NCBI GenBank assembly: GCA_004213515.1
Contig: SHAK01000001.1
Span: 86,359 to 150,358, forward strand
Length of the DNA stretch: 64,000 nucleotides
From: Limisphaerales bacterium
Lineage (GTDB): Bacteria; Verrucomicrobiota; Verrucomicrobiia; Limisphaerales; UBA1096
Direction of reading: 5' to 3'
Shown here piece after piece: positions 30,270 to 64,000 of the stretch. Numbering within the stretch: the stretch's first letter is position 1; each line of letters begins with the position of its first letter. Both the position numbers and the translations under genes were made by a program. Under the pieces are notes generated by a model, which searched no databases, was not told where the DNA came from, and saw nothing but the letters and a program-made list of their open reading frames with translations.

Positions 30270-30944
30270 TTGAAATTCATAATCGTGAGTGAAATCATTT
30301 CAAACTTTCTACCACTATGGCAAGAATCTATAACGGGTGTAAACCTTCCTGCTACCTTGCTATTTGGAATAATTTTAATTTTTTGGATTTTTAATATTAT
30401 CGGAGTTTTGGGGACAGAATTATTGGACTTCCTGATTCCGGTGGATTTTGGCTCGATTGATATCCCGATACTATCTGGGGATACATTTGCCGGGATATTC
30501 GATTTCTTTTATATTGGCAAGGTCCCGCTGGTGATACTATTTAGTGTGTTTGGATTTGTTTTTTGGCCCACCTGCATTTTATCAAATTACTATCTTAATC
30601 CAGAAAAAACTTGGGGGATCGGGCTTATAGTTTTGGGACTAGGATCGATTGCTTCCATTTTCGCAATGAAACTTTCGCTAATGCCTTTTGAACGTTTCTT
30701 CGAATCAATTGCGAAGTTAGATGAATTGGATTCGCCTGATGCATTCCTTGGAAAAATTTGTACAATCAGGAGCCCGAAAGCAGACGAAAAGTTTGGCCAA
30801 GCTGAGATCGAAAATCCGGATGGAGCTCCGTTTTTGTTTAATGTAAAGCCCACCCGGGAAGGCGAGGTCCTAAAGCGAGGTGAATCTGCTGTAATTGTGG
30901 ATATAAAAGACAAAATTTTTAGTATTAAAAAAATAGATATTTAA
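30270..30944 (+). CDS. NfeD-like membrane protein (N-terminal TM helices plus a C-terminal OB-fold beta-barrel), the canonical partner of SPFH/flotillin proteins
   Basis: A hydrophobic N-terminal half is followed by a C-terminal segment (GKICTIRSPKADEKFGQAEI...GEVLKRGESAVIVDIKDKIFSIKKI) typical of the NfeD beta-barrel. The start is non-ATG: TTG at 30270, or possibly GTG at 30286. Confidence 0.72.
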   Translation: MKFIIVSEIISNFLPLWQESITGVNLPATLLFGIILIFWIFNIIGVLGTELLDFLIPVDFGSIDIPILSGDTFAGIFDFFYIGKVPLVILFSVFGFVFWPTCILSNYYLNPEKTWGIGLIVLGLGSIASIFAMKLSLMPFERFFESIAKLDELDSPDAFLGKICTIRSPKADEKFGQAEIENPDGAPFLFNVKPTREGEVLKRGESAVIVDIKDKIFSIKKIDI

Positions 30945-30959
30945 AAAAAAGATAAAAAA

Positions 30960-33041
30960 ATGATAAATATTACAACAATAGGTAACATGCTTACTAATGT
31001 TTCAATCATTGGTGGAGTTGGTGCGGTGATCATATTTTTTGGCCTTCTTGCGATCGCAGTTCGATGCATGAGAAAAGTAGAACCTGGCACTGTAGGTGTT
31101 CGAACAGGAATTGGAGGAATAACGGTTAGAGACTCTTGGTGCGTGGTTCTTCCCCTTATTCACAAGTACGATATCATGGATATTTCAGTTAAACGGTTAG
31201 AAATAAACCGGCAGGGGACTGACGGCTTGATCTGTCAGGATAATCTGCGTGCTGACATTACTGTAGCTTTTTACATAAGGGTGGACAAACCTCAGGCACA
31301 GGAAGTAGCTCAAGCAGTAGGATGCGATAGAGCATCAGAAATTGACCAACTCAGACAACTGTTTGAGGCTAAGTTTTCTGAAGCCCTAAAGACCGCAGGC
31401 AAGCAATTCGAATTCACTTCTCTCTACACAGAGCGAGATCAATTCAAACAGTCTATTCTTGAGGTGATTGGTAAGGATTTAAATGGCTACCATTTAGAAG
31501 ATTGCGCCATTGACTACCTAGAACAGACTCCGCTGGACAAGATGGATGCCAACAACGTTTTGGATTCGATAGGTATCAAATTAATTAACGGAGTGACAGC
31601 GAAACAAGCGGAAGAAGCTAACCAGATTTTACGAAATAAAGAGAAGGAGATTAAACGACAGGATGTTGAAGCTACGGAGGCTATCCTTCAACTTGATAAA
31701 CAAAAAGCAGAAGCCGAAGAGCAACAAAAACGAGAGATTGCGACCATTACAGCACGTGAGGTAGCCGAAGCCAATAAAGTCACCGAAGAAGAACGATTGA
31801 AGGCGGAATCAGCAAGAATCAATACCGAACAGGAGCTCGGAGTAGCGGAGGAAAACAAGCAGCGGCAAATCATTGTAGCGCAGAAGAACCGTGAAAGAAC
31901 ACAGGCAATTGAAACTGAACGGGTAGAAAAAGACAGGTTACTTGAGGTTACCGAAAGAGAACGAATTGTAACTTTGGCCAACATCGAGAAGGAAAAAACT
32001 ATCGAAACAGAACAAAAGAACATTCAAGAGGTTATCCGGGAACGGGTTGAGCTTGAAAAAACGGTTGTCGTTGAAAAAGAAAAAATTAAAGACACAGAAT
32101 CGTTTGCTACTGCTGATCGTGAAAAACGTGTTTTAATAACTAAGGCAGAAATGCAAGCAGAAGAAGCTTTGGTAAAAGATATTAAAGCTGCTGAGGCTGA
32201 AAAGAAATCAGCTGAATTAGAAGCAGAACAGGAGAAGTATAAGCAAGTTCTTGCTGCTGAAGGAGCCAAAGAAGCAGCTGAGATGAAAGCCGATGAAATT
32301 ATGATTGCAGCAGATTCTGAGGAAAAAGCTGCCACAAAACTTGCAGCAGCCAAGAAGAGCGAAGCATCTGGAGTCACTGCACTGGATGCCGCAGCAGGAT
32401 TAGCTCAAGCTAATGTCATTTCCGCAAAAGCAGAGGCCAAGGAGAAAGATGGAACGGCTGAAGCAAATGTGATGGAGCTGAAATTTCAAGCAGAGGCTAA
32501 AGGTATTATAGAAAAGGCAGAGGCAATGAAGATCTTTGACGGTGTTGGCCGCGAACATGAAGAATTCAAGTTGAACCTGAATAAGGACAAGGAAATCGAA
32601 TTAGCTCAGATCGAAGTCCACAAGGATATTGCGGAACAGCAAGCTCTCATAGTTGGGGAAGCTCTCAAAAGTGCTAACATCGATATTGTTGGTGGCGATA
32701 GCGTGTTCTTTGACAAGATCACTAATGCTATAACTCAGGGCAAATCAGTCGATCGCTTAGCAAAAAACAGCCAAGTTATTACCGATGTAAAAGATACGTT
32801 TTTTAATGGTGACCCTGATTATTTTAAACAAAAACTTACTGATTGGGCTGGGGATTTCGGAATTACAAGTGACTCGATAAAGAACCTGACAATCTCTGCA
32901 CTCATCGGGCAAATGATTAGCGAATCAAAAGACTCGGGAAAAACCTCAATTTTAAAACAGGCTCTAGAAATGGCAGCGAATTTTGGTATCGCAGACAATC
33001 CTGCCAATTCGGTGATCAATTTACCTAATTCTGAAAATTAA
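30960..33041 (+). CDS. Flotillin-family SPFH/Band-7 protein with an extended Ala/Glu-rich coiled-coil
   Basis: An N-terminal TM anchor is followed by an SPFH core (GTVGVRTGIGGITV...) and then about 350 aa of EA-rich heptads. At 693 aa it exceeds the roughly 500 aa typical of bacterial FloT/YqiK. It starts 15 nt after the NfeD-like gene. Confidence 0.9.
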   Translation: MINITTIGNMLTNVSIIGGVGAVIIFFGLLAIAVRCMRKVEPGTVGVRTGIGGITVRDSWCVVLPLIHKYDIMDISVKRLEINRQGTDGLICQDNLRADITVAFYIRVDKPQAQEVAQAVGCDRASEIDQLRQLFEAKFSEALKTAGKQFEFTSLYTERDQFKQSILEVIGKDLNGYHLEDCAIDYLEQTPLDKMDANNVLDSIGIKLINGVTAKQAEEANQILRNKEKEIKRQDVEATEAILQLDKQKAEAEEQQKREIATITAREVAEANKVTEEERLKAESARINTEQELGVAEENKQRQIIVAQKNRERTQAIETERVEKDRLLEVTERERIVTLANIEKEKTIETEQKNIQEVIRERVELEKTVVVEKEKIKDTESFATADREKRVLITKAEMQAEEALVKDIKAAEAEKKSAELEAEQEKYKQVLAAEGAKEAAEMKADEIMIAADSEEKAATKLAAAKKSEASGVTALDAAAGLAQANVISAKAEAKEKDGTAEANVMELKFQAEAKGIIEKAEAMKIFDGVGREHEEFKLNLNKDKEIELAQIEVHKDIAEQQALIVGEALKSANIDIVGGDSVFFDKITNAITQGKSVDRLAKNSQVITDVKDTFFNGDPDYFKQKLTDWAGDFGITSDSIKNLTISALIGQMISESKDSGKTSILKQALEMAANFGIADNPANSVINLPNSEN

Positions 33042-33089
33042 TATTTTTCATTAATTATTCTGAACTAAAATAGCTTTTCACGTAGCATC

Positions 33090-36000
33090 ATGTCAGAAGA
33101 AGATGCAGAGCAAACAGTGTCTACCGAGGTAAAGCCTGCCTTGGAGGGAGGCACCTACGAAATCATCAAGCAACGGTTGCTGAAACAGGCAGGCGAATTA
33201 AAAAAGAAAGTCCAGCAACTTGATGAATTAAGGAAGAGTGTATTCGGGTCGGTTCCGATGGCTCTGAAAAAAGCGGAAAGAATCACGACAGAACACAATT
33301 GTATACCTCGGGATATGATCCGGGCTGTAAGTGATACTTTTATATTTGGTTATAATGTGCAATTCGGCTTAAAGACATCGGTTCAAATCAGTGATGTTTT
33401 TGCTATCTTTGATTATAAAGACGAAGCATTTCACCCCCTAAGCCTAGAACCACTAAAAAGTGGCCAATTCGAGCAGGATTTCGCTAATCTATATAAGTAC
33501 TACAAAGAAACTAAATTTGTTAAGTTTTCACAAATAGGCCCGTTTCTTTTTATGGTTTTTCGTGTTGGCAAAAACGTTACTGACATCAAAACATTCAAAT
33601 GGGCAATTCAGAACGGAGAATTACATTACGTCGATAACCGAAGCGATCATGAGTTTGTATTTCCAGATCAATACCAATTTGAATGGGTCAGAACGCATAG
33701 GGATTTGCATCGTTTTGGAGAACATCCTCACGTCTCAATTGAAGATACTGTATTTGTGGAATGTATCGGGGGTGACCTAACGATTAAAATTGAGGATAAC
33801 ACTGACTCTGGGTCGGGAATTTTGTCTGAAGAGGTCGAGTTTAAGGATCAAACTCTGGACGATGCAGAAATCTTTTTTGCTAAGATTGGCCAAATCATTC
33901 TGTTAAAAATTAGACCATTTCAGGAAAAAGAATTCAGATACTTTGTTTACAATAATAAGTTACGTGAGGTTCATCGGTTTGATGCTCTAAAAGATGCATG
34001 TTGCATACTTCCAGAAGGCCATGGCGTGATTGTTCCCAACGGCTATTATTTGATCAACGGACAAATTAAAATTTACGAAAATGATCTGACAGAGATGATG
34101 TTCGAACGAATGGTCAGTTCTCCTAATGGGGAAGATTACATGTATGTTTTTTATAACAGATTACAGGGTAATTATACCATTTTGCCATATAACATCATCT
34201 CTCAAAATGTAGACAATCCAATTTATTGTAATGGCTTTTCTCTATTTAAAAACGGGGAGTTGACTTACTTCCGAATGGATGATGAACCCCAAAAACATCA
34301 TGTTGCGCAAATCTGGCAAACTCCCTTTACACTAGAGGAGCTTAACAGCGAAACCAACAAGGACCACTTTTTATATCAAATCGGAAATAGGGATGTAGTT
34401 CGCTGTATGGCAGAATGCAGTGAAATATTAAATCTCGCGACTCGAGACTCAACATACGACGAATTGTATATAGACTTGGTCAAACGGTCTCAAGATGTAG
34501 TTGAGTCCTATTTCTGGATTGATAACGATGGACTAAATGGAATCGTAGATTGCATTAATCAAATAAAGGAGACTTCAGGCCAAGCTATAGATGAATTCAA
34601 CAAAGTAAACCGTCTTAAAAAGGAGGCAATCGAAAGGCTCAAAGCTGTAGAAACTAAGACTAAAGAGATTTTTAATGAGATTAGTCGGAGCGAGTTTGCG
34701 CTCATTGACGATTTTGTTTCTAGATTGGCCGAACTAAGAAAGATTCGTGGAGAAATCATATCTCTTCGGGATGTCCCATATGTTGACCTGGAAAGGGTGA
34801 ATACATTTGAGGAAACTGTTTCAAGCAAGACACTGCAGCTTTCTGAATCTTGTGTTGATTTTTTGTTAAAAGAAGAATCCTTGAATCCATATCGAGATCA
34901 CGTGGCTCAACTAAAGGGATCGCTTGGAAATATTACAAAGGTCACAGAGGGAAATGAACTTGTTGAAAATGTAAGCGAAGCCGGTAACGAGTTGGAAATG
35001 CTTATCGACATCGTTAACAACTTGAAAATTGAAGACTCAACGCAAGCGACAAGAATCATCGACCAAATTACGGAGATCTTCACTTCAATTAATCAGTTAA
35101 AAGTTGCTGCCAACAAGAAAATCAAGGAGTTGCATGGTGTTGAAGGTAAAGCACAATTCGCAGCACAAATAAGGCTCATAAGTCAGTCAGTCGTAAGTTT
35201 TTTAGACCTTTGTGACTCCCCTGAAAAATGCGATGAATATTTGAATAAACTCATGGTTCAACTTGAGGAACTCGAAGGTTCCTTTGCTGATTTCGATGAG
35301 TTTATTATAGAGATTGCAGACAAAAGAACCGAAGCATATGAAGCGTTTGAAGCTAGAAAATTAAACCTCATAGAAAGCCGTAATAAAAAAGCGGTATCTT
35401 TGGTTTCATCAGCTGAACGCATATTAAAGGTTATCAGCAACCGTGTTGAAGGATTCGATTCCATTAACGATATCAACGGATATCTGGCTGCTGATTTGAT
35501 GGTCGAAAAGATACGCGGCATCATAGATAATCTAAATTCACTCGGAGATTCTGTAAAAGCGGATGATATTCAAGGGCGACTTAAAACCATACAACAGGAT
35601 GGGATTCGTCAGTTAAAAGATAAAAAAGAGCTGTTTCAGGATGGGGAAAATATTATCAGATTCGGAAAGCATAAGTTTTCGGTTAACACTCAGGATCTAG
35701 ATTTAACTATTCTCAGCCATGACGGTGATATGTGTCTTCATCTAACAGGCACAAAATTCTTTAGTAGCATTAAAAATCCAAAATTTCTGGAAACAAAAGA
35801 TGCTTGGGCACAGGATATCATTTCAGAAAATCGCGATGTCTATAGATCCGAATACTTGGGCTATCAAGTGCTATTATGGCTTGAGCAAAACGGCAGTATT
35901 AGCATCGAAGAATTCCTAAAATTAAATGATGCAGAAAGATTGAAAACGGTTCAGGATTTCATGGCTCCCCTTTACGCTGAATCCTATACCAAGGGTATTC

Positions 36001-38675
36001 ATGATCAAGACTCCTTAAAAATTCTGGAAGCCTTAACTACTATTTATAAAGCACAAAAACTGGCCCGCTATTCTCCAACTGCCCGGGCCTGCGCTTTAGT
36101 TTATTGGAACTTGTTTTGCCCAGCTGAATTAAAGTCACTTTGGCAGGCAAAACTTGAGGCTTTTCAGGAGAAAAACACACTCTTCCCTGGGCTTCAATTA
36201 AATACATTATATGTAGATGAGATTGAGAAATTAATCAGTGATTTTACAGTAGAAGAAAGAATATTTGACCAATCCTTGACGCGTGAATCAGCAGAGTACC
36301 TTTTTCATGAAGTTGCAAATGGCAAAGGGCAAGTCATCAGTAAGGAAGGAGCTGAACTAATAAATGGTTTCAACGCACACCTGAAGAAAACCAACAAGGA
36401 ATTGAATTATGAAAAATCCATAAAACCGCTCGAAAATTACCCTCGTAATAAATATCTAGTGATTCGGGACTGGGCTTCAGGATTCGTCAGGTCTACTGGG
36501 AATGAAGAACTTATTCAATACGAGGAGGAACTCACTAGTTTATTGTTACTTAATCATTACGATACGAGATTTATTGTTAACGAATCTAATTCCAAAGAAA
36601 TAAAAAACATGGCCGGGTCGCATCCGGTTATAGTGGACGATTGCTACCATCTTGATTTTCATAAGTTTCAAAACAAACTGAAATTTTTTGCGGATCAGTC
36701 CGTTCCGAAATATGCGAAGTATTTGGAATTAAAATCCAAAGTCATAGAAGATGGTCGGAAAGATTTAAGATTAACAGAGTTCCAGCCAAAGGTTCTTACC
36801 TCGTTTGTGCGCAATAAACTCATTAATGAAGTTTTTCTTCCAGTTATAGGTGACAACTTGGCAAAGCAACTTGGTGCGGCCGGTGATAGCAAGCGCACAG
36901 ACTTAATGGGATTGCTACTACTAATCTCTCCACCAGGTTATGGTAAAACCACTTTAATGGAATATATTGCCAATCGAATGGGCTTAATTTTTATGAAAAT
37001 TAATGGCCCAACTGTTGGCCATGAAGTCACTTCTTTGGATCCCAGTGAAGCCGGAAATGCTGGAGCTAGAGAGGAAGTTCAGAAACTAAACTTGGCTTTG
37101 GAAATGGGTGACAACGTAATGATTTATTTGGATGACATTCAGCATTGTAATCCAGAATTTCTTCAGAAATTCATTTCGTTATGTGACGCCCAGAGAAAGA
37201 TTGAGGGAGTGTGGGAAGGCCGACCTAGAACATATGATCTTAAAGGAAGAAAAGTAGCCGTGGTAATGGCCGGTAATCCATATACTGAAAGCGGTGAGAA
37301 ATTTAAGATCCCCGACATGCTATCTAATCGGGCAGATACATACAATTTGGGCGACGTCGTTGGGGGTAATGCAAATGCCTTCAAGGCTAGTTATATTGAA
37401 AACGCCGTCACTTCCAACCCTGTATTACAACAGCTCTCGAATAAGAGCCAAAAAGACATTCAAACATTCATTGAAATTGGTGAAACCGGTTCGAGAGAAG
37501 CGGCAAATTTTGAATCCAATTATTCTGTGGCAGAAATTAATGAGATTGTCTCTGTAATGCAAAAAATGGTTATTGTTCGGAATTTTCTTTTGGATGTTAA
37601 TTTAGAATATATTCGATCCGCTGCCATGGCAGATGAGTTCAGAACTGAGCCGAGATTCCAGCTTCAAGGATCCTATCGAAACATGAATCGGCTCGCGGAA
37701 AAAATATTACCTATTTTAAACGACCAAGAGGTCGATGAATTAGTCATTGATCACTACAAAAGCGAATCTCAAACACTGACTACAGGAGCGGAAGCAAATC
37801 TACTGAAATTCAAGGAAATGTTCTCCCTTTTATCTCAAGAAGAAGAGGTTCGATGGAATGAAATCAAAAAGACTTTTAAGAGAAATCAATTATTAGGTAG
37901 CACAGATCAAAGTGATCCTGTCGGTCGTGTTGTCGCGCAGTTGACTTCATTTCAAGAAGGACTGGGGTCTATACAAACTACCCTTGAGCAAAAACTAAAC
38001 CCAGAAAAGACTAAAGATTTATCAATAGACCTTAATCCGCTTGTTGAGCAATTGGGATGCATAGGTGAAAAGTTAGCATCATCAATGGCCAACAGTGTTG
38101 AAGGGAATCTAAAAAAAAATGAGCAGCAAGTCAGCTTAGAATTAACCAGCGAAATTAATAATAAATTCGAATTAATCAAAAAAGAGATTCTTAATTTAAA
38201 GAATGATATTCGTGATGCTAATCAAGAGCAAAAAAATACCGATCAGCCAATTTTAAAATCATCCGAAGTAGAAGAGAAATTCAAAAAACTTAATGATGGT
38301 TTAACGAACATCAAAGCGAAAATTGAAAAATTTCCAAATGATGAATTAGGAAAATTCAAAGACGAATTTGAAAAACAGTTGAACACTAAACTTGAGCCAA
38401 TAACGAAGAACATAGACGAGATCAAAAATTTACATCAAGAAGAGTGGCCCAAAGAACTTGAATTGAAGGGCAAACAAGTCGAAAAGATTGAACAGTTGGT
38501 CATGGAGATTTCTTCTTTGGTTTCTCAAAAGCCTTCCTCCGTTCCAGCAATACTCAGGGCATTGATTAACAAGTACGATCTAGATTCGAAAGGTAACCCC
38601 GAAAAGAACAAATCTTCGGACCAAGTCAAGAATGACAGTAAGCTCAAGGAAGTGCTTGAGCGTTTCAAAAAATAG
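33090..38675 (+). CDS. Giant 1861-aa protein with a single central AAA_5-type (dynein/midasin/MoxR/McrB-clade) P-loop ATPase domain; the N-terminal ~1280 residues are unassigned, and the C-terminal region is a Lys/Glu-rich coiled coil
   Basis: Walker A GYGKTT lies at 36936-36953 (residues 1283-1288) and Walker B IYLDD at about 37125-37136. The following DIQHCNPEFLQKFISLCDAQRKIEGVWEGRPRTYDLKGRKVAVVMAGNP mirrors the AAA_5 pattern (hhhDEInra..v...L..ll.e.r.....g.......F.liATmNP). The gene starts 48 nt after the flotillin stop. Confidence 0.85.
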   Translation: MSEEDAEQTVSTEVKPALEGGTYEIIKQRLLKQAGELKKKVQQLDELRKSVFGSVPMALKKAERITTEHNCIPRDMIRAVSDTFIFGYNVQFGLKTSVQISDVFAIFDYKDEAFHPLSLEPLKSGQFEQDFANLYKYYKETKFVKFSQIGPFLFMVFRVGKNVTDIKTFKWAIQNGELHYVDNRSDHEFVFPDQYQFEWVRTHRDLHRFGEHPHVSIEDTVFVECIGGDLTIKIEDNTDSGSGILSEEVEFKDQTLDDAEIFFAKIGQIILLKIRPFQEKEFRYFVYNNKLREVHRFDALKDACCILPEGHGVIVPNGYYLINGQIKIYENDLTEMMFERMVSSPNGEDYMYVFYNRLQGNYTILPYNIISQNVDNPIYCNGFSLFKNGELTYFRMDDEPQKHHVAQIWQTPFTLEELNSETNKDHFLYQIGNRDVVRCMAECSEILNLATRDSTYDELYIDLVKRSQDVVESYFWIDNDGLNGIVDCINQIKETSGQAIDEFNKVNRLKKEAIERLKAVETKTKEIFNEISRSEFALIDDFVSRLAELRKIRGEIISLRDVPYVDLERVNTFEETVSSKTLQLSESCVDFLLKEESLNPYRDHVAQLKGSLGNITKVTEGNELVENVSEAGNELEMLIDIVNNLKIEDSTQATRIIDQITEIFTSINQLKVAANKKIKELHGVEGKAQFAAQIRLISQSVVSFLDLCDSPEKCDEYLNKLMVQLEELEGSFADFDEFIIEIADKRTEAYEAFEARKLNLIESRNKKAVSLVSSAERILKVISNRVEGFDSINDINGYLAADLMVEKIRGIIDNLNSLGDSVKADDIQGRLKTIQQDGIRQLKDKKELFQDGENIIRFGKHKFSVNTQDLDLTILSHDGDMCLHLTGTKFFSSIKNPKFLETKDAWAQDIISENRDVYRSEYLGYQVLLWLEQNGSISIEEFLKLNDAERLKTVQDFMAPLYAESYTKGIHDQDSLKILEALTTIYKAQKLARYSPTARACALVYWNLFCPAELKSLWQAKLEAFQEKNTLFPGLQLNTLYVDEIEKLISDFTVEERIFDQSLTRESAEYLFHEVANGKGQVISKEGAELINGFNAHLKKTNKELNYEKSIKPLENYPRNKYLVIRDWASGFVRSTGNEELIQYEEELTSLLLLNHYDTRFIVNESNSKEIKNMAGSHPVIVDDCYHLDFHKFQNKLKFFADQSVPKYAKYLELKSKVIEDGRKDLRLTEFQPKVLTSFVRNKLINEVFLPVIGDNLAKQLGAAGDSKRTDLMGLLLLISPPGYGKTTLMEYIANRMGLIFMKINGPTVGHEVTSLDPSEAGNAGAREEVQKLNLALEMGDNVMIYLDDIQHCNPEFLQKFISLCDAQRKIEGVWEGRPRTYDLKGRKVAVVMAGNPYTESGEKFKIPDMLSNRADTYNLGDVVGGNANAFKASYIENAVTSNPVLQQLSNKSQKDIQTFIEIGETGSREAANFESNYSVAEINEIVSVMQKMVIVRNFLLDVNLEYIRSAAMADEFRTEPRFQLQGSYRNMNRLAEKILPILNDQEVDELVIDHYKSESQTLTTGAEANLLKFKEMFSLLSQEEEVRWNEIKKTFKRNQLLGSTDQSDPVGRVVAQLTSFQEGLGSIQTTLEQKLNPEKTKDLSIDLNPLVEQLGCIGEKLASSMANSVEGNLKKNEQQVSLELTSEINNKFELIKKEILNLKNDIRDANQEQKNTDQPILKSSEVEEKFKKLNDGLTNIKAKIEKFPNDELGKFKDEFEKQLNTKLEPITKNIDEIKNLHQEEWPKELELKGKQVEKIEQLVMEISSLVSQKPSSVPAILRALINKYDLDSKGNPEKNKSSDQVKNDSKLKEVLERFKK

Positions 38676-53756: not shown

Positions 53757-56700
53757 ATGCGGCAATATGGTTTAAACAATCCTTTTTCAAGATTCATTTT
53801 ATTTGCAATCGGAATAACGGGGACTATTTCAATTCATTCTGCTGATTTCGATCAAGACATAGCCCCAATATTTGTTCGAAGTTGTGTCGAGTGCCACAAC
53901 GGTTTTGATCTTAAAGGAAAACTAAACTTGTCTCAGCGCAACTCAGCATTGAAAGGAGGCAAAAGCGGAACACTTATTCTGCCTGGCAAACCAGAAGAGA
54001 GCTTACTGTGGAATAAAATTAAAAATGATGATATGCCTCCAGATAAGCCACTTGATCAAAAAGAAAAAAAACTCGTTCAAGATTGGATTAGTGAAGGTGC
54101 AAATTGGGGAACAAATTTAAAACTGGATCCATTCGAATTCACCACAAAAAAACGTGGTGGTTATGATTGGTGGTCTCTGCAACCGATAAAACGACCTAAT
54201 CAACCAGATATTACAAAGTCAGCCAAATGGGTAGCTAATCCAATCGATGCATTCGTACTAGCCAAACTTAAATCAGCAAAATTAAAACCAAGCAGCCCCG
54301 CTCTGCCTCGAGCATTAATTCGAAGGCTATATTTCGACATTACTGGTCTACCCCCTTCAGCTAAAGAGGTAGCAAAATTTGTTTCTAACCCTACCAATGA
54401 AGCATATAAGAAGATAGTTGACGATCTTCTCAGTTCACCACGTTACGGCGAACGCTGGGGACGCCATTGGTTAGACTTGGCACGCTTCGGTGAGAGTGAC
54501 GGTTTTGAACGTAACAACACAAGAAACAACCTTTGGCCTTACCGAGACTGGGTAATCAAAGCAATAAATGACGATATGCCTTACGACGAATTTGTACGAA
54601 TGCAGATTGCTGGGGATATTCTGAAACCCGGTGATCCAGTGGGACAGAAGTCAGTTGGTTTTCTAGTAGCTGGATTACACAACACTGTTGTAGGTGGAAG
54701 TGAATTCATGAAAAAAACGGCAAGACAGGATGAACTTGAAGAAATCATCGGGACTGTCGGTCAAACTTTTGTCGGATTAACGGTTAATTGTGCCCGCTGC
54801 CATAACCACAAATACGATCCCATTCTACAAAAAGAATACTATCAATTAACATCAGCAATCGCTGGTGTATTCCATGGAGAACGCAATGTCTCAGACCCGG
54901 AACTTGAGCGCCAACGCAAGTCTTTACTGACACAAATAGAATCTTTCAGTAAAGAACTTAAATTAATTGAAAATCAGGGACGTCAGACAGTTATAAACAA
55001 ACGAAGTCATGGTAAAGAAACTACTATGCCTAAGCCCCCAAAGCCAATTTCTAGATGGGAGTTTGATAACAACCTTAAAGATAGTATTGGCAATTTGCAT
55101 GGAAAGGCAAAAGGAAGCGCTCGTATTTCAGGTGGCGCCCTTTTAGTTGATGGAAATGAGTCGTGGATTGAAACAAATTCTATTGAGTCATCGTTTCGAT
55201 CCAAAACACTTGAAGCATGGGTTGAGTTAAGCAATTTGAATCAAAAAGGTGGAGGTGTGATTGGGTTACAAAGCCTCAATGGCGCTACATTTGATTCCAT
55301 TGTATTTGCTGAACTTGAAGCGCACCGATGGATGTCAGGTAGTGACGGCCACAGCCGAACTAAATCATTTAGGGCTAAAGAAGAAAATTTCGCGCATCAG
55401 CAGCCGGTGCACATTGCAATTGTTTATCAAGAGGATGGCACCGTTATCGGCTATCGTAATGGAGTCCAATACGGAAAACCTTATAAGACCAATTTACAGG
55501 AATTCTTCAAGGGAAGTTCACAAGTAATTTTTGGTATGCGGCACAAAGGCGGAAGGAATAACTATTTAAAAGGAAAGATTCATCGCGCACAACTTTACGA
55601 CCGAGCACTTGCCCCAAACGAAATCGCTGCCTCAGCAGGAGTTGAATCATCATTCGTAAGCGAATTAGAGTTAGCCGCTGCACTTTCAAAAACAAAAAAG
55701 ACTAAACGTATGGCCCTTAAAGATCAGTTAACTGGACTCCTCGCTCGTCAAAAAGAATTAGGAAAGGGTTCAAAAATGAAGATTTATACAGTTGCCGCTC
55801 GAAGCAACCCCGGCAAAGTGCGCATATTAAAACGAGGAAACGCAATGGATGAAGGCGAAATAGTTCGCCCAGGAGCTGTTTCTGCACTTAGGACATTTAG
55901 TAGTGACTTTGGAATCAAGGCAAACGCTTCTGATAGCGATCGGCGGAAACAGTTGGCTAACTGGATAACGCATCCAAAAAACCCATTATTTAATAGGGTA
56001 ATAGCCAACCGTATTTGGCATTATCACTTTGGAACAGGCTTAGTTGAAACACCCAACGATTTTGGCTTTAACGGAGGTCGCCCGAGCCATCCAGAGTTGC
56101 TGGATTGGCTAGCTTCGGAATTAAAAACCAATGGCCAAAGACTCAAGGGGCTTCATCGATTAATTGTAACTTCAAATACATATCGACAAGCAGCAGCCCC
56201 TCGAGAAGAAGGACTTGCAGTCGATTCAGAAAACCGTCTTTTATGGCGCAAATCACCAGTCAGACTAGATGCTGAATCACTGCGAGATGCAGTTCTTAAA
56301 GTTTCTGGAAAACTTAACTTCAAGATGGGAGGCCCTGGCTTTCGCGATGTTTCAGTTATACCAAACAATGGCACCACTTACTACGAACCAATTTATCCAA
56401 TTGGAAGCGAATACGACCGTCGCACCGTTTACCGATTTAGCCCAAGAGGAGGACGAAGCGCAATTCTTGACACCTTTGACTGCCCTGATCCTTCCACAAC
56501 TGCCCCAAGACGCGCTGTGACTACTACCCCATTGCAAGCACTGGCACTTTTAAATAATAAATTCATTTTAAATAAAGCAGATGCCATGGCAAATCGCTTG
56601 AAGGCACAATCAAACGGAAATAGGGACAAGCAAATTGAACAGGCTTTTCTCAGCGCCTTTCAACGAAATCCAGATTCTGAAGAAATGCTTTTAGCAAAAC

Positions 56701-56777
56701 GATTAATCGAAGACTACGGACTTACCACTCTATGTCGTTCTCTTTTTAACAGTAACGAATTTATAATTATTAATTAA
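53757..56777 (+). CDS. PSCyt1 cytochrome-c-like plus DUF1549 / LamG insert / DUF1553 protein
   Basis: A signal peptide is followed by CVECHNGFDLKGKLNL, then DWWSLQP (DUF1549), a LamG-like block (ARISGGALLVDGNESW...KIHRAQLYDRAL) and a DUF1553 C-terminus (NRIWHYHFG, DCPDPS, TTPLQALALLN). Length is 1006 aa. Confidence 0.85.
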   Translation: MRQYGLNNPFSRFILFAIGITGTISIHSADFDQDIAPIFVRSCVECHNGFDLKGKLNLSQRNSALKGGKSGTLILPGKPEESLLWNKIKNDDMPPDKPLDQKEKKLVQDWISEGANWGTNLKLDPFEFTTKKRGGYDWWSLQPIKRPNQPDITKSAKWVANPIDAFVLAKLKSAKLKPSSPALPRALIRRLYFDITGLPPSAKEVAKFVSNPTNEAYKKIVDDLLSSPRYGERWGRHWLDLARFGESDGFERNNTRNNLWPYRDWVIKAINDDMPYDEFVRMQIAGDILKPGDPVGQKSVGFLVAGLHNTVVGGSEFMKKTARQDELEEIIGTVGQTFVGLTVNCARCHNHKYDPILQKEYYQLTSAIAGVFHGERNVSDPELERQRKSLLTQIESFSKELKLIENQGRQTVINKRSHGKETTMPKPPKPISRWEFDNNLKDSIGNLHGKAKGSARISGGALLVDGNESWIETNSIESSFRSKTLEAWVELSNLNQKGGGVIGLQSLNGATFDSIVFAELEAHRWMSGSDGHSRTKSFRAKEENFAHQQPVHIAIVYQEDGTVIGYRNGVQYGKPYKTNLQEFFKGSSQVIFGMRHKGGRNNYLKGKIHRAQLYDRALAPNEIAASAGVESSFVSELELAAALSKTKKTKRMALKDQLTGLLARQKELGKGSKMKIYTVAARSNPGKVRILKRGNAMDEGEIVRPGAVSALRTFSSDFGIKANASDSDRRKQLANWITHPKNPLFNRVIANRIWHYHFGTGLVETPNDFGFNGGRPSHPELLDWLASELKTNGQRLKGLHRLIVTSNTYRQAAAPREEGLAVDSENRLLWRKSPVRLDAESLRDAVLKVSGKLNFKMGGPGFRDVSVIPNNGTTYYEPIYPIGSEYDRRTVYRFSPRGGRSAILDTFDCPDPSTTAPRRAVTTTPLQALALLNNKFILNKADAMANRLKAQSNGNRDKQIEQAFLSAFQRNPDSEEMLLAKRLIEDYGLTTLCRSLFNSNEFIIIN

Positions 56778-56778
56778 T

Positions 56779-58212
56779 ATGAAATTCTTGGATAACATTA
56801 ATCGAAGAGATTTTTTTAACTGGGGAATCCGAGGTATTGGCGCCACTGCATTTACCAGCCTACTGGCAAGTAACACCAAAGCTCATGCAGGACTTAAACA
56901 TGATACTTTCCCAAATTTTACACCTAGAGCAAAAAGAGCGATTCACATTAGTCTTGTAGGAGGCATGAGTCATGTTGACTCGTACGACTATAAACCAGGT
57001 CTAGACAAGGCCCATGGAAAACCACTTGGGTCGAACGAGAAACCTGACATCTTTTTCGGTCAGGTAGGGCAATTAAGGAGGAGTGATTTCAAATTCAAGC
57101 AACGCGGACAGAGTGGCCTTTGGTTGTCGAGCATGTTTCCTAACATCGCTGAGATGGCAGATGAAATGACAGTCATTAGGTCAATGACCACCAATTCAGC
57201 AAACCACACGCCGGCATTATTTTTTGCCAACAGCGGATTTGAATTTAACGGCTTTCCATCAGCTGGCAGCTGGGTGTCTTACGGATTGGGATGTGAATCT
57301 GAAACATTGCCTGCTTTTGTGGTGTTAGGGGACAAACGAGGCGGTCCAAACGGTGGAGCCTCAAACTGGACTAGTGGCTTTCTGCCTTCACAACATCAGG
57401 GAGTAGAATTGCGAACTGGAAAGACACCGGTACGCGACCTCTTCCCAGCTATCGATCAGCAAGAAGGTTCCGATAAAGCAGCCCGCACCTTTTTGAAAAG
57501 ACTTAATACTCTTCACGCTGATCGAAACGGATTGGATTCGATCTTAAGCAACCGAATGCGCAGCTATGAACTTGCAGCTCGAATGCAACTGTCCGTACCA
57601 CAAGTGAGTAACATAAAAGGAGAACCAGAACACATCAAAAAAATGTACGGTTTAAATGAAAGCCGCACCGAAGATACTGGTCGACGCTGCCTGCTTGCAC
57701 GACGTCTGCTAGAAGGTGGAGTGCGATTTGTTCAGATATACTCTGGCGGACCAATTGGCGGATCACCCCGAGCAAGTTGGGATGCCCATGAAAACGTTAA
57801 GGAAAATCATTCTGTTGAAGCTGGACGAATCGATAAGCCGATTGCCGGATTACTCCGTGATCTAAAGCAACGTGGAATGCTTGATGATACCCTTATTTTA
57901 TTTACTACCGAGTTTGGACGGACTCCATTCGCACAATCCAAAGCCAATCAGGTTGGTCCAGGCAGAGACCACAATAAATATGGTTTTTCCTGCTGGCTAG
58001 CTGGAGGTGGAGTAAAGCCGGGGATTAGCTACGGTCAGACTGATGAGATCGGTTGGAAGACAGTTGAAAACCCAGTACATTGGCACGATTTTCATGCGAC
58101 AGTCCTCCACCTTATGGGAATGGATCATAAAAAACTAACCTATTACCACAATGGAATAGAACGTCGCTTAACTAATGTACACGGGCAAGTAGTCAATGAC
58201 ATCTTTGCCTGA
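56779..58212 (+). CDS. DUF1501 family protein with a twin-arginine signal (second copy)
   Basis: The gene starts 1 nt after the upstream DUF1553 gene. The N-terminal Tat motif is NRRDFFNWGIRGIGATAF, and the C-terminal YHNGIERRLTNVHGQVV parallels the first copy. Confidence 0.85.
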   Translation: MKFLDNINRRDFFNWGIRGIGATAFTSLLASNTKAHAGLKHDTFPNFTPRAKRAIHISLVGGMSHVDSYDYKPGLDKAHGKPLGSNEKPDIFFGQVGQLRRSDFKFKQRGQSGLWLSSMFPNIAEMADEMTVIRSMTTNSANHTPALFFANSGFEFNGFPSAGSWVSYGLGCESETLPAFVVLGDKRGGPNGGASNWTSGFLPSQHQGVELRTGKTPVRDLFPAIDQQEGSDKAARTFLKRLNTLHADRNGLDSILSNRMRSYELAARMQLSVPQVSNIKGEPEHIKKMYGLNESRTEDTGRRCLLARRLLEGGVRFVQIYSGGPIGGSPRASWDAHENVKENHSVEAGRIDKPIAGLLRDLKQRGMLDDTLILFTTEFGRTPFAQSKANQVGPGRDHNKYGFSCWLAGGGVKPGISYGQTDEIGWKTVENPVHWHDFHATVLHLMGMDHKKLTYYHNGIERRLTNVHGQVVNDIFA

Positions 58213-58216
58213 GCAC

Positions 58217-60481
<2,265 letters not shown>

Positions 60482-60601
60482 CTAAATAGCGCATTTATAA
60501 AAATAGTTAAAAAATTCCAGTAAATATATAAGTACAAATAAATATATATAAGCTACTGAAAAGAATTTTTGTTCTTTCAGCTTAAAGAAGCAAAGTATGA
60601 T

Positions 60602-63600
60602 TCACTTCGTTTTAATATTTCTTGCGACAACTTTCATCATGCCTCGCATCAACGTTGCATGTCCCGGAAAGGTACAAACATATGGGTAATTTCCTGGTTC
60701 AGGTGCAATAAAATTGATCACAGTTTCCTCTTTATGATTAATAGCTTTAGAGCCCCAAAGAATAAGCGGGGTGTCCGGTTGCCATTGTTTACTGATACCT
60801 TTTTCACCAAGTTCAAGAGCCATTTTGGCTACTTCATCAGCTTTGCCAGGCTTAACTATAAGTAAATTATGAGGAGGGAAATCCATATTTCTGAATTTCA
60901 ATGATACAGAATCTCCAGTTTTAACCTCAAACTCCTTAGTATCATAAAGCATTTTTCCCTCTATAGTACTTATAGTGATTTGAAACTTTTCACCCTCAAT
61001 AACCGGAATGGAGCTACCACCTCCATAGATATCAACGAATCTTGGCCCAGCAATTCGTCGCATTTTCTGGACTATATAAGCAGGAAGATCATTCCGAGGA
61101 ACCACGCCAGATTTGATTGCGTCAGTAAATTTTTGTGCATAAGAAGACTGCGATGATAATGTCTTTATTGTAGCAGACTTTTCTTCAACATTCATTTTAG
61201 AATACCTACTAAGTAATTCTCTCGAAAATGATTTTTCGTCATATGATGCCATGGCAACTATTGAATCGTTACTTAAATTACTATCATTTAATAGATTCAC
61301 TAAACGGTCTTTAAGAGCGTGATGTTCTTTGGATGCTAAAGTTTTAAGTGCAGATCTACGATCTACTGAAGTAGCTTTGGAATTGTCCAATGTTGAAATC
61401 AAAGCTTTGTTGGTTTCACTATCTCCAAGAATCAGTGCTATCTCTTTTGCAAGTGGATATTTCTCAATTTTTTTGTATGTTTCTTGCCAGCTCGCGGGCG
61501 CCACAGCTTCATCCAAACTCTTTAATCCAGCATCAAAACCTCGGAGCATGTTGTTGATTGTTGTTTCATCTTTAATTTGACCAAGAGCAAGAGATAGTGT
61601 CTCAAGCTGGCGTGCATTTGTTGCTCGGCGTGCAATATATTCGGTTACCAATGGTAATTGGCTGGCCTGCGCCAAATTCATGGCGCGCGTTGGGTTTTCC
61701 GGGACGAGCGGCTCAACACCATACCAAATCATCTTGGGCAAATTATGGTCATCAGCATCCTCAGCGTGGGTGACCAAACCAGCAGCGATTGCCCATCGAT
61801 TGCCCATCGATATGCGTTGCATAGCGGAGGCTAGATAGAGGCGCACCACCGGCGAAGAATCCTTATTTGCCATGCTTGCGAATTTTTTTAAAGCACGGTT
61901 AGACGGGTTCTTATCCTCACAGAGAAATTGAATTGACCATGCACGGATATGCTCGTCTTCGTCGTTTAGGTTTTTTAAGTTCTCAGACTCGTTCAAGCCG
62001 CCAGTAATGTGCAATCCCCAAAGCGCACGCAGGCGATAATCGGCGTTTTTATTTTTGCGGAACATCTGCTTTAGCGAGCGGTGCGTACCCTTATCTAATT
62101 TACCTTTTATTGACCTCCCATGCAGAACAACGCGCGCTCGACGAGCATGCCACGAACTTACGTTAGTCTGGTAACTAACTAATTTTGCATCGCTAAGTTT
62201 TTCAACATCTTCGTAACGGCCCTCCCAGTCGTTGGCTAAGCTTTTGTTGGGTGCCAGACGGAAAATACGACCAGTATCCTTATGTTGAATGTTATTTCCA
62301 CATATGAATGCATCATGCCAGTCAAGAACGTATACGTTACCTGCAGGACCAATTTCCATACTAAAGCCAATCCATTGTTCATTGTTTGCATGCATGAAAT
62401 CCTTGTGTTCCTTGCCAACGTAACCAGAGCCAGCAGGAACCAATTCATCAGTCAAGACTGCATGCTCGTGGATATTAGCCATGAAAAGTTTACCCTGATA
62501 CTCATCTGGAAAAGCATCCGATAGATAAACACGGGCTCCACCGTGTGCTGATCGGTGACGGTGTTCCGCGATCGTACGGATATCACTGTAGGCGTGCGGA
62601 TTAAAATGACGGCCAGCCTGGCGGTGATACAAGCCGCCGGGGATGACATGCCACAAGTGAGGGATCACGCATGCTGTAATGAAAAGTTGCCCCTTGGCGT
62701 CGTAGTCGATACCCCAAGGATTGCTAAAACCGTGCGCAACAATTTCAAACACTTCCTTAGTTGGGTGATAGCGCCAGACACCACCGTTAATCTTCTGACC
62801 CTCCCCTTCGAACTCGACCGACTTGGGATATGGCTCACCATGCTTGAAAAGCTTCCCTGTTCCCTTTGGCTTACCTACGACAGAAGGCGTGAACACGCCT
62901 TGGCAGCCGTATATCCAGCCGTCCGGCCCCCAGTGCAGACTGTTGAGCACCTCGTGCCGGTCGCGAATGCCCCACCCTGTCAGCCGCACCTCGATGTCAT
63001 CAACATCAGCTTTGTCGTCTTTGTTGCGATCTGGAACGAATAACAGATTCGGCGGCGCACCCAACCAAAGTCCGTCAAGGCCCACTGCCATCGCAGACGG
63101 AAACGGAACGCCCTCAAGAAATACTGAACGCTTATCAGCCACTCCATCGCGGTCAGTGTCTTCCAAGATTAAAATGCGGCTATCGCCCGAAGCGGAAAAT
63201 CCACGGCCGCGCGTTTCATAGTCTCGATTCTCGGCAACCCACATGCGGCCCTTGTCGTCCCAGCAAAATGCCATTGGCTGAGTGATCATTGGCTCATTGG
63301 CCCAAGAGTTAACAGTGAAGCCTCCTTCAATAGTCGAGTTGTCGACCGCCTCCTGCGGGGTGAGAAACTTAGCATCTCGACCAGCACGCTTTGCAAGTTG
63401 CCAAAGTGCATATGTGCCTCGCTGACCAGTGTAAGCTTTCCAGCGATCAGTCAACTCCTTGCCGTTAAGTTTGCCACCGTAAACCTGAATCTGATGACGA
63501 ATGGTCTCAGTCTTTCCTTTGGCAATATTCCAGTCACCGAGTCGCGCTCGCACCGGGCCTACACCTAGCTGGCCATCTACCCTCCAAGGCTGAGGATAAC

Positions 63601-64000
63601 CTGCGTTTTTATGATGATCAAAAATAGCGATATGCCCCCAGTCATCTCGACCGTCAATCTCCATACCGACGTCAAGCCACATAGCGCGCTTCCCCTCAGC
63701 CCTACGGTCGGTGTCACGTGCGGCGTTAACAGCCTCGCCCTTGATACCCTTCTTCCAAGGCATACGCACGAAAAGTCCCCCGTAGGGGTATTTGCCAATA
63801 TTGACATTGGTTTGGCCGGTCCCCATCCACTCAAGGTCGAGAACGTGCCGATCTTTGCTTGAAGTCATCGACCACCGCTGGGTCTCTGTGAGCACTGCAT
63901 TGCCATTAGCATCTAGTAGATCGTAGACGGTCTCCCATTTTACCGAATCTCCTTTGGCTTCGATCACTTTAACATCCTTGCGTTTCCAGTAATCGCCTCT
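60602..64000 (-). CDS. Giant DUF6807/PmoA-like plus membrane-bound-dehydrogenase beta-propeller plus HEAT-repeat protein with a C-terminal type-1 copper cupredoxin (azurin/plastocyanin-like) domain, partial: the N-terminus lies beyond the window end
   Basis: The frame is open to position 64000, and the ORF-track 'M' at 63967 is a GTG. The C-terminus HNLLIVKPG...YPYVCTFPGHATLMRGMM carries His...Cys-x-x-Pro-Gly-His-x-x-x-Met, a classical blue-copper ligand set. The central part has HEAT-like repeats. The N-terminal part resembles the propeller of the 17437-20616 paralog. Confidence 0.85.
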   Translation of the reverse strand, partial: RGDYWKRKDVKVIEAKGDSVKWETVYDLLDANGNAVLTETQRWSMTSSKDRHVLDLEWMGTGQTNVNIGKYPYGGLFVRMPWKKGIKGEAVNAARDTDRRAEGKRAMWLDVGMEIDGRDDWGHIAIFDHHKNAGYPQPWRVDGQLGVGPVRARLGDWNIAKGKTETIRHQIQVYGGKLNGKELTDRWKAYTGQRGTYALWQLAKRAGRDAKFLTPQEAVDNSTIEGGFTVNSWANEPMITQPMAFCWDDKGRMWVAENRDYETRGRGFSASGDSRILILEDTDRDGVADKRSVFLEGVPFPSAMAVGLDGLWLGAPPNLLFVPDRNKDDKADVDDIEVRLTGWGIRDRHEVLNSLHWGPDGWIYGCQGVFTPSVVGKPKGTGKLFKHGEPYPKSVEFEGEGQKINGGVWRYHPTKEVFEIVAHGFSNPWGIDYDAKGQLFITACVIPHLWHVIPGGLYHRQAGRHFNPHAYSDIRTIAEHRHRSAHGGARVYLSDAFPDEYQGKLFMANIHEHAVLTDELVPAGSGYVGKEHKDFMHANNEQWIGFSMEIGPAGNVYVLDWHDAFICGNNIQHKDTGRIFRLAPNKSLANDWEGRYEDVEKLSDAKLVSYQTNVSSWHARRARVVLHGRSIKGKLDKGTHRSLKQMFRKNKNADYRLRALWGLHITGGLNESENLKNLNDEDEHIRAWSIQFLCEDKNPSNRALKKFASMANKDSSPVVRLYLASAMQRISMGNRWAIAAGLVTHAEDADDHNLPKMIWYGVEPLVPENPTRAMNLAQASQLPLVTEYIARRATNARQLETLSLALGQIKDETTINNMLRGFDAGLKSLDEAVAPASWQETYKKIEKYPLAKEIALILGDSETNKALISTLDNSKATSVDRRSALKTLASKEHHALKDRLVNLLNDSNLSNDSIVAMASYDEKSFSRELLSRYSKMNVEEKSATIKTLSSQSSYAQKFTDAIKSGVVPRNDLPAYIVQKMRRIAGPRFVDIYGGGSSIPVIEGEKFQITISTIEGKMLYDTKEFEVKTGDSVSLKFRNMDFPPHNLLIVKPGKADEVAKMALELGEKGISKQWQPDTPLILWGSKAINHKEETVINFIAPEPGNYPYVCTFPGHATLMRGMMKVVARNIKTK

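Follow-up and report, generated by a model that had tools for sequence, protein, structure and literature searches.

The 64,000-nucleotide stretch analyzed here (the window), part of contig SHAK01000001.1 from a Limisphaerales bacterium, ends inside a minus-strand gene, the target gene, whose GC content falls abruptly within a single reading frame. The product would be a secreted protein resembling the PVC-type "membrane-bound dehydrogenases." We consider it probable that this gene was imported whole, as an already chimeric allele, and that the GC step was left behind by homologous recombination in a modular redox-enzyme gene. An earlier note on the same DNA had proposed a chimeric gene made by recombination; its mosaic nature stands, with a joint at about 61600 to 61660, but the fusion in this genome that the note envisaged is not supported. 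What we observe is the step itself, a joint shared between species, trees and breakpoints that are incongruent along the gene, a contrast between the gene and its flanks, a bias in synonymous substitutions, and a difference between heme and copper at the C-terminal end.

The gene runs from 60602 to beyond 64000, and the window end cuts it; the open reading frame (ORF) annotated at 60602 to 63967 continues in frame up to that end. In three near-identical contigs (L001, L002, and L018; 99.5 to 100% identity), the full gene has 1236 codons, with a start codon about 312 nucleotides (nt) past the window end. Codons are numbered here from the start of the full gene, codon n beginning at window position 64312 - 3(n - 1) and codon 105 at 64000. 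Coordinates of all features are collected in Table 3.

A sharp composition step at synonymous sites

GC content is 0.512 for 61661 to 64000 and 0.381 for 60602 to 61660, compared with 0.406 for the remaining window (window mean, about 41%). At third codon positions (GC3), it drops from 0.523 in codons 1 to 884, hereafter the N part, to 0.278 in codons 885 to 1236, the tail, so that the step lies mainly at synonymous sites. A two-state likelihood scan placed the best single GC3 change-point after codon 884, between 61661 and 61660, with a log likelihood ratio (lnLR) of 31.3 and a 2-lnL support interval of codons 881 to 904 (61601 to 61670). The highest lnLR was 7.5 in 300 permutations and 6.4 among the 22 other long ORFs of the window, whose 100-codon segments have a mean GC3 of 0.338 (standard deviation, 0.062). 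The sharp shift that had been noticed in the letters is therefore borne out by a computed profile, and the transition had been accurately estimated at 61580 to 61650. The GC-rich part does extend to 64000, as described then, but its actual end is the 5' end of the gene, about 300 nt past the window. The tail, which had been called as AT-rich as the rest, is roughly so, yet slightly more AT-rich at synonymous sites (GC3 of 0.278 versus 0.338; p = 0.018).

The difference extends to every class of codon. GC content at 4-fold degenerate sites is 0.46 in the N part, 0.24 in the tail, and 0.31 in the background; the fraction of C in NNY codons is 0.53, 0.24, and 0.33, and that of G in NNR codons is 0.60, 0.28, and 0.36. 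Since all codon classes shift together, the step reflects a general compositional difference rather than a preference for particular codons. Amino acid composition was considered as a cause and is ruled out by the third-position location of the step and by the involvement of all codon classes. The GC-rich part also contains two overlapping antisense ORFs (62555 to 63043 and 62823 to 63221), which had been reported as a companion of its composition. They do exist and are consistent with high GC, but because the number of stop codons in those frames varies among close relatives, we dismiss them as genes and read them as by-products of the GC-rich sense sequence.

The joint recurs in independent assemblies

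A contig joined from two organisms within a conserved gene could produce such a step, and the source is an uncultured marine organism known from metagenome assemblies. However, four independent assemblies (L001, L002, L003, and L018: an ENA metagenome assembly, the NCBI metagenome-assembled genome [MAG] GCA_042095455.1, a second ENA scaffold, and a Tara contig) run straight through the joint, at about 61660, with 99.4 to 100% identity. The step also recurs in more diverged copies, namely in two other MAGs (SAT219 and CPC23), in a single-cell genome (AG-404-B10), and in more than 8 Tara/JGI metagenome contigs. The joint is thus present in more than 14 independently assembled contigs, the single-cell genome included. 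Breaks of two SAT219 contigs at the target gene and the departure of L003 from the window at 63636 speak for an artefact, which we nevertheless regard as having practically no chance of being the explanation.

Both of these irregularities are of some interest in their own right. The two SAT219 contigs (L014 and L015; PAOJ01000051 and PAOJ01000001) end in or just after the target gene, with an overlap of about 1 kb that is 98% identical; the break may possibly be due to co-existing strain variants. Scaffold L003 is 99.4% identical to window positions 54113 to 63636 and then continues with 600 nt (L003 9526 to 10124) of 27.5% GC that carry a DUF1330 gene and match none of the other fetched sequences. 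The junction falls at target codon 226 or so and may be a strain-level rearrangement truncating the gene or a chimeric scaffold.

A regional boundary is an equally faint prospect. Inside the window, the GC-rich stretch reaches the very end, as it would if the window broke off just inside a larger island or isochore rich in GC. This is refuted by the contigs that extend further (L001, L002, and L018): their GC content falls to 0.34 to 0.40 at the start of the gene or just upstream, and the next upstream genes, for a peptidyl-prolyl isomerase (PPIase) and a BNR-like protein, have a GC3 of 0.36. Misassembly and a regional isochore, the checks proposed in the earlier note, are for practical purposes excluded.

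A copper domain in the position of a heme domain

The family to which the target belongs consists of secreted proteins of about 1270 amino acids (aa) from Verrucomicrobiota, Planctomycetota, and Bacteroidota. Their usual layout is a DUF6807 beta domain, a propeller like that of the pyrroloquinoline quinone (PQQ)-dependent sugar dehydrogenases, an alpha-solenoid, and a C-terminal cytochrome c domain, which presumably carries electrons off the enzyme. The target follows this order up to the last domain. The domains called from the sequence in the earlier note (PmoA-like, propeller, HEAT, and cupredoxin) were right and correspond to Pfam DUF6807, DUF7133, HEAT_2, and Copper-bind. By inspection, the N terminus encoded in L001 looks like a signal peptide. 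The AlphaFold model of the 1132 window-encoded residues (mean predicted local distance difference test score, 81.6; predicted template modeling [TM] score, 0.70) arranges them as an all-beta N-terminal domain, a beta-propeller, an alpha-solenoid, a short disordered linker, and a beta-sandwich; the composition joint sits within the alpha-solenoid, between two helices. Foldseek matched the propeller to PQQ-dependent soluble sugar dehydrogenases of the sGDH type (8re0, 5min, and 1c9u) and to 3a9g with a probability of 1.00 and TM scores (target) of 0.49 to 0.67, whereas a sequence search of the PDB found no relative of the propeller, its identity to those structural matches being merely 11 to 15%. 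An identity of the first domain with PmoA, the particulate methane monooxygenase subunit with transmembrane helices, was rejected: the PF14100 region (model residues 1 to 176) is modeled as beta strands only. The "PmoA-like" label is a historical misnomer, and Pfam now names the family DUF6807.

NCBIfam TIGR02604, the N-terminal "membrane-bound dehydrogenase" domain, matches the target with 315 bits (cut-off, 122.2). The CxxCH heme domain TIGR02603 gave no match in the target, while it is recognized with 123 bits (cut-off, 68) in P0002, a relative of 89% identity; where Cytochrom_C is usual, Pfam finds Copper-bind. The target shares with the PVC-type heme-binding CxxCH proteins (TIGR02604 plus TIGR02603) the architecture of the first 1100 residues or so and the syntenic locus, and differs from them in having a copper domain instead of the CxxCH heme domain and in the strong divergence of the 220 or so residues that precede it. 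From fold and architecture, we infer that the enzyme would be a dehydrogenase whose electrons exit via the C-terminal redox domain; a literature search with the protein family names found no functional study.

The terminal domain is predicted to be a type-1 copper cupredoxin, with copper binding and electron transfer as its putative properties. It matches PF00127 with 36.2 bits (cut-off, 21.2) and the PDB sequences 6kol (E = 2e-14) and 2aan, and Foldseek superimposes it on auracyanins with TM scores of 0.80 to 0.82. The ligands His1148, Cys1213, His1218, and Met1222 are invariant in six copper-type tails, except for codons masked by N bases. Across auracyanins and azurins together (6kol, 2aan, 1qhq, and 3ay2), the fold match has TM scores of 0.72 to 0.82, root mean square deviations of 2.4 to 3.1 Å, and 25 to 32% identity. 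The target shares their His...Cys-x4-His-x3-Met ligand pattern and has the C-terminal motif CTFPGH; unlike these proteins, which are free or lipid anchored, its copper domain is fused at the C-terminal end. Azurin proper was rejected, the equivalog TIGR02695 scoring 23.3 bits against a cut-off of 105.1; the domain is azurin-like.

Homology of this module to other proteins starts exactly at the cupredoxin start (FQITISTIE..., codon 1110). Its best matches are the C-terminal domains of SMP-30/gluconolactonase-like proteins of about 429 aa from marine Opitutia-type Verrucomicrobia, with 65 to 71% identity (71% for the SGL-cupredoxin protein P0140); the gene of one such carrier has a uniform GC3 of 0.73 and lies in a 56% GC genome. 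In a HMMER search, the module turned up on many DUF7133 propeller proteins whose N-terminal domains are different (ThuA and GDSL lipase), so that a copper domain as the partner of the propeller is a recurrent theme. The 1523-aa protein P0245 has ThuA, GDSL, and DUF7133 domains and ends in a cupredoxin as well as a cytochrome c domain; within this propeller superfamily, it could represent an intermediate or a dual-carrier architecture.

Heme and copper versions at one locus

The target lies in a gene order of Zn-ribbon, BNR-like, PPIase, target, LigA, DUF1501, PSCyt/PSD1, and MutS, and in L005 and L010 the same neighborhood holds the cytochrome c version. Cytochrome c is the C-terminal domain of nearly all of the 120 best homologs of the N part; the target and two relatives (P0003 and P0004) are the only ones with a copper domain there. 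Over the first 1100 residues or so, the target is 64 to 94% identical to cytochrome-c-type relatives of the same architecture.

Table 1. Base composition of target-gene loci and their hosts
Locus	C-terminal domain	Host or flank composition	GC3 of gene
Window	copper	flank GC3 ~0.34	0.52 then 0.28
L005	cytochrome c	host GC 0.43	0.39
L010	cytochrome c	host GC 0.45	0.46
L011, L012	cytochrome c	host GC 0.63-0.65	0.82, uniform
L006	copper	host GC 0.51-0.55	0.64 then 0.29

The two versions differ in how they relate to their hosts (Table 1). Cytochrome-c-type genes track host GC3 and have no step or a weak one (L010, 0.51 then 0.37), whereas every copper-type gene has the step regardless of host GC, in hosts of about 41 to 55% GC. 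Three groups of copper-type genes can be recognized. In the first (window and L018, SAT219, and CPC23 with L019 and L023; host GC3 of about 0.34), GC3 falls from 0.52 to 0.26 to 0.29, with splits at codons 883 to 885 (after 885 in SAT219 and after 883 in CPC23), and the profiles of the window gene, SAT219, and CPC23 are almost superimposable. The second (L009, L017, L021, and L022) has three levels, 0.60, 0.43, and 0.27, with splits near codons 560 and 922. In the third (L006 to L008 and L020; host GC3 of about 0.55 to 0.6), GC3 is 0.64 and then 0.29, with a split after codon 890. Diversity within the second and third groups is at most 4%. Tail GC3 is 0.26 to 0.29 in all copper-type hosts. In L006, whose flanks have GC3 values of 0.45 to 0.69, it is therefore the N part that looks native and the tail that looks foreign, the mirror image of the window.

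The window itself offers an internal control. A distant paralog at 17437 to 20616 on the minus strand (1059 aa; DUF7133, HEAT, and cytochrome c; 24 to 31% identity to P0002) has a uniform, native composition with a GC3 of 0.30. Given this paralog with its cytochrome c domain, the genome keeps heme-type members of the wider family beside the copper-type allele.

The surroundings of the second group are unusual as well. Just upstream of the gene lies a fragment of the PPIase 5' end (L009 7019 to 7369 and 9621 to 9843; L017 1 to 237; L021; and L022), which in L009 is duplicated around an insert of about 2.3 kb. Although the gene copies are near-identical, their contexts diverge beyond about 170 nt upstream and 60 to 840 nt downstream, which suggests cassette-like movement or a hypervariable island.

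Recombination signals independent of base composition

Segment trees were built by neighbor joining from amino acid distances with 200 bootstraps. For codons 30 to 560, the window gene joins L009 (96%), then the cytochrome-c-type L012 (95%), and then L006 (78%), with L005 and L010 as a separate pair (98%). The pairing of the window gene with L009 holds throughout the N part, at 96 to 100%. In the tree of codons 901 to 1100, the three copper-type genes form one clade (100%) with L012 outside. The N part is thus closest to genes of the L009, L012, and L006 type and not to those of L010 and L005; that is, the GC-rich codons 1 to 884, compositionally foreign in this genome, resemble the genes of relatives with higher GC more than those of the window's own sister lineages, as expected of the foreign front part that the earlier note had proposed. 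Protein identity is 86 to 99% in the N part and 54 to 69% in the tail. Against cytochrome c types, the N part reaches 86 to 94% and the first tail segment, codons 885 to 1105, 54 to 58%; this segment is homologous to their C-terminal solenoid but strongly diverged.

Maximum chi-square analysis of informative amino acid sites also detects a change of nearest relative. The window gene changes at codons 909 to 916 from L012-like to L006-like (chi-square, 21.8; p < 0.002), L006 shows the mirror switch at codons 899 to 916 from L012-like to window-like (chi-square, 37.3; p < 0.002), and L009 has its breakpoint at codons 914 to 916 (p < 0.002). The breakpoint comes directly after LPLVTEYIARRA (codons 886 to 897), which in the alignment is the last block conserved in both copper-type and cytochrome-c-type alleles; derived residues common to the copper-type genes set in at about codon 900. 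We infer that LPLVTEYIARRA is the probable crossover site. A crossover that keeps the copper tail must fall upstream of the diverged region, and the joints may coincide for this reason. Congruent phylogenies of the two halves had been named as an argument against a chimera; trees and breakpoints are incongruent, and the chimera is kept, with the difference that the whole allele would have been imported.

Exchange at this gene was probably not confined to the joint. L012 (650 to 4441) resembles the window gene in the first 166 codons or so (23 of 28 informative sites) and L010 afterward (p < 0.002), and up to about codon 922 it is closer to L009 than to L011. These mixed affinities indicate that exchanges have hit the target gene repeatedly, beyond the joint studied here.

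The tail is probably not native

On the reading of the earlier note, only codons 1 to 884 would be foreign, fused in this lineage to a native C-terminal part. Three features agree with that version of events: the GC3 of the tail is within the range of the window genes (0.25 to 0.44), the N part is clearly odd and its GC is decaying (see below), and the gene occupies the ancestral syntenic locus. We compared the gene with its flanks by a tree of the concatenated BNR-like and PPIase upstream neighbors (1111 columns). It supports L006 with L011 (100%); the window, SAT219, L023, and L010 versus the others (98%); and, within these, L010 with SAT219 and L023 (100%). According to this tree, the cytochrome-c-type L010 nests inside the copper-type species.

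Table 2. Synonymous third-position differences in flanking genes and in parts of the target gene
Comparison	Flanks	N part	Codons 885-1100
Window vs L010	0.33-0.36	0.51	0.57 (57% aa identity)
Window vs SAT219	0.34-0.38	0.20	0.12
L010 vs L005	0.29-0.41	0.47	0.43

Synonymous differences point the same way (Table 2). The tails of the window gene and L010 are saturated at synonymous sites and their flanks are not, while the values of L010 and L005 for the gene are near those for the flanks, as they should be if the cytochrome c allele was inherited vertically. In the three sister species with the copper type, N part and tail show about half the synonymous divergence of the flanks (0.12 to 0.20 versus 0.30 to 0.39), and nucleotide identity of the window to SAT219 and CPC23 is about 0.91 over the whole gene versus about 0.80 in the flanks. 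The simplest reading of these sequences would be that the cytochrome c allele was resident in the clade and that a complete copper-type chimera replaced it in the window lineage, SAT219, and CPC23.

A native tail and a local fusion do not hold up well against these results. The flank sisters L010 and L005 carry a cytochrome c tail at this locus, 57 to 59% identical to that of the window and synonymously saturated. The same tail and joint recur in three gene groups, in hosts of about 41 to 55% GC, and the tail is foreign in the 51 to 55% GC host L006. Between the window and SAT219 or CPC23, the tail is less diverged than the flanks (0.13 to 0.15 versus 0.30 to 0.39), and its GC3, already below background, tends upward. 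We therefore consider import of the N part alone unlikely.

Direction of compositional change

We polarized synonymous changes on a three-taxon star of the window, SAT219, and CPC23. The N part has 92 GC>AT versus 57 AT>GC changes (p = 0.005), with the same direction on all three branches, compared with 368 versus 428 in four flanking genes and 11 versus 27 in the tail (p = 0.014). By Fisher tests, the N part differs from the flanks (p = 7e-4) and from the tail (p = 4e-4), and the tail differs from the flanks (p = 0.045). In this host, then, the GC content of the N part exceeds its equilibrium and is decaying; for the tail, the few changes are suggestive of a rise in GC, if anything. Lawrence and Ochman reportedly described such a course in their amelioration model of horizontally acquired DNA. 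The target resembles that model in the directional GC>AT excess of a foreign N part in a low-GC host with balanced flanks, and departs from it in having two segments off equilibrium in opposite directions in one host, with the roles reversed in a second host.

These changes also bear on whether any transfer is needed. Selection on codons or mRNA in the catalytic part, with relaxed, AT-biased drift in a fast-evolving tail, might maintain a GC3 difference by itself, and the much stronger conservation of the N-part protein, the mildly raised N-part GC3 of low-GC cytochrome c orthologs, and the near-superimposable profiles of the window gene, SAT219, and CPC23 would agree with it. Yet high-GC orthologs are uniform throughout the gene; the L006 tail lies 0.3 below host GC3, which AT-biased drift there cannot give; the N-part changes are off equilibrium; and the rise is alike in all codon classes. 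Moreover, the paralog at 17437 to 20616, of the same architecture, and other conserved window genes lack a step, and the protein-level breakpoints and tree incongruence are independent of GC. Maintenance without transfer is thus very unlikely.

A scenario for the target gene and points against it

Import of a ready-made chimera, which we favor, would involve the following order of events and donors. First, in a very AT-rich marine relative, the cytochrome c domain would have been replaced by an azurin/auracyanin-like copper domain. Second, a crossover in LPLVTEYIARRA would have joined the AT-rich tail (about codons 885 to 1236) to the GC-richer N part of a higher-GC lineage. Third, the chimera would have passed from species to species and displaced the cytochrome c allele resident at the orthologous locus, among others in the window genome and its sisters SAT219 and CPC23 (about 41 to 45% GC). 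In a lineage of about 51 to 55% GC (L006), the N part would match the host and the tail be foreign; in the window genome, the N part would now be drifting down in GC and the tail, if anything, up. The two steps are separated because the boundary of the domain swap (about codon 1105 to 1110) differs from the GC boundary (about codon 885): most likely, the swap came first, in a gene that was itself AT-rich, and recombination produced the joint at codon 885 only afterward. The presumed parent, a copper-type gene with a low-GC N part, was not found in genome contigs, metagenome contigs, a word-indexed protein search, or a HMMER search of 1.84 billion representatives, which returned only the three chimeric groups and unrelated proteins sharing the copper module alone.

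Several points weigh against this scenario. N-part GC3 is also raised in low-GC cytochrome c hosts (L010, 0.51 versus 0.37 to 0.39 in the flanks; L005, 0.43 versus 0.34), and the elevation may in part be intrinsic to the gene or stem from earlier exchanges. The segment trees are distance-based, not likelihood-based; in them, the cytochrome-c-type L012 (L012cy) nests among copper-type N parts in codons 30 to 560, and L006 is weakly placed in codons 561 to 900. Either a single origin of the joint would need further recombination, or the joint would have arisen repeatedly at this one conserved block. A slower local substitution rate could account for part of the low synonymous divergence of the gene. 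The AT>GC excess of the tail is drawn from 38 changes, and parsimony is biased toward common-to-rare changes in skewed sequence. All comparisons between groups are near synonymous saturation (0.35 to 0.5) and the donor lineage is unsampled, so that both the direction and the sequence of events are derived from composition and parsimony. Finally, the suggestion that a swap of the electron exit from iron (heme) to copper would be iron-sparing in the open ocean is a plausible conjecture, drawn by analogy with cytochrome c6 and plastocyanin (PMC8557733) and with the heme- and copper-fused NirK enzymes (PMC4770552).

Features of the window

Table 3. Features of the target gene and its surroundings in window coordinates
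Feature	Position	Strand	Description
Target gene	60602..64000	-	PVC-type "membrane-bound dehydrogenase"-like, predicted secreted; Pfam DUF6807 + DUF7133 + HEAT_2 + Copper-bind; TIGR02604
GC-rich N part	61661..64000 (codons 105-884 in window)	-	GC 0.512, GC3 ~0.52
AT-rich tail	60602..61660 (codons 885-1236 + stop)	-	GC 0.381, GC3 0.278
GC3 change-point support interval	61601..61670	-	best split after codon 884
LPLVTEYIARRA	61622..61657 (codons 886-897)	-	last block conserved in copper-type and cytochrome-c-type alleles (alignment)
Amino acid recombination breakpoint	61565..61618 (codons 899-916)	-	maximum chi-square, GC-independent
DUF6807 domain (old name "PmoA family")	63440..64000	-	PF14100, 101.5 bits; all-beta; truncated by window end
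DUF7133/TIGR02604 beta-propeller	62252..63358	-	Pfam 212.7 bits; predicted fold like PQQ-dependent soluble sugar dehydrogenases
Alpha-solenoid (HEAT/armadillo-like)	61025..62203	-	model helices 600-992; armadillo/importin-alpha Foldseek matches; HEAT_2
Tail part 1	60998..61660 (codons 885-1105)	-	homologous to cytochrome-c-type C-terminal solenoid, strongly diverged
Azurin/auracyanin-like type-1 copper domain (predicted)	60620..60985 (codons 1110-1231)	-	PF00127; occupies the family's cytochrome c position
Copper ligand codons (predicted)	His1148 60869-60871; Cys1213 60674-60676; His1218 60659-60661; Met1222 60647-60649	-	from sequence
Two overlapping antisense ORFs	62555-63043 and 62823-63221	+	stop counts in close relatives 0-3 and 1-4

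Two other parts of the window deserve mention. Positions 16000 to 26000 are its most AT-rich stretch (GC of 0.28 to 0.37; gene GC3 of 0.25 to 0.30), which contains the paralog of the target and encodes an acyltransferase, an S9/DLH-type hydrolase, a 506-aa protein without a Pfam match, YaaA, and an esterase. On the plus strand, 30270 to 38675 encodes a protein of 1861 aa that combines DUF3686 ("ATPase involved in DNA repair"), DUF7902, and AAA_5; two ORFs of 224 and 693 aa without a Pfam match precede it, and the three may form an uncharacterized multigene system.

Relation to known systems and implications

Mosaic genes formed by partial transfer are familiar from the penicillin-binding-protein genes of Neisseria and Streptococcus. 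Like them, the target has a foreign block in an orthologous gene and what appear to be crossovers in conserved sequence, recognizable by composition, breakpoints, and tree conflict. It differs from the usual cases in that the partners are up to about 20 GC points apart, the domain content changes, and the joint is old and found in several species, not the product of recent exchange among strains. It is a well-documented new example of a mosaic gene by partial transfer, a phenomenon whose concept and methods have been described (PMC3241670), and its mechanism is not of a new kind. The case is internally controlled: the joint can be read from base composition, and the front is foreign in one host and the back in another.

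Cytochrome c6 and plastocyanin are interchangeable heme and copper carriers (PMC8557733), and NirK nitrite reductases occur with a fused cytochrome c or a fused cupredoxin (PMC4770552). The target resembles both systems in placing a c-type cytochrome or a type-1 copper protein in the same partner position and, like some NirKs, has it fused. In the case of plastocyanin, two separate genes are involved and the choice is one of regulation or gene content, whereas here there are two alleles of one gene, with an electron-transfer role that is predicted.

For annotation, the protein is named for a heme motif that is absent from it and for a "PmoA" label that does not apply. More broadly, our results suggest that uncultured ocean bacteria swap the electron-exit domain of modular periplasmic redox enzymes, heme versus copper, by allele replacement at a fixed locus, in parallel with the cytochrome c6/plastocyanin choice of phytoplankton; this may bear on the iron economy of heterotrophs. 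A bolder idea, which we put forward as a tentative possibility only, is that the heme and copper versions are two old alternative alleles circulating across marine Verrucomicrobia under iron- and copper-linked selection, a "metal-switch." If so, the switch would move by homologous recombination between genomes more than 10 GC points apart, the two-tone composition would record repeated recent imports, and the locus would serve as a natural marker of gene-specific sweeps and of adaptation to trace metals among heterotrophic bacteria of the ocean.

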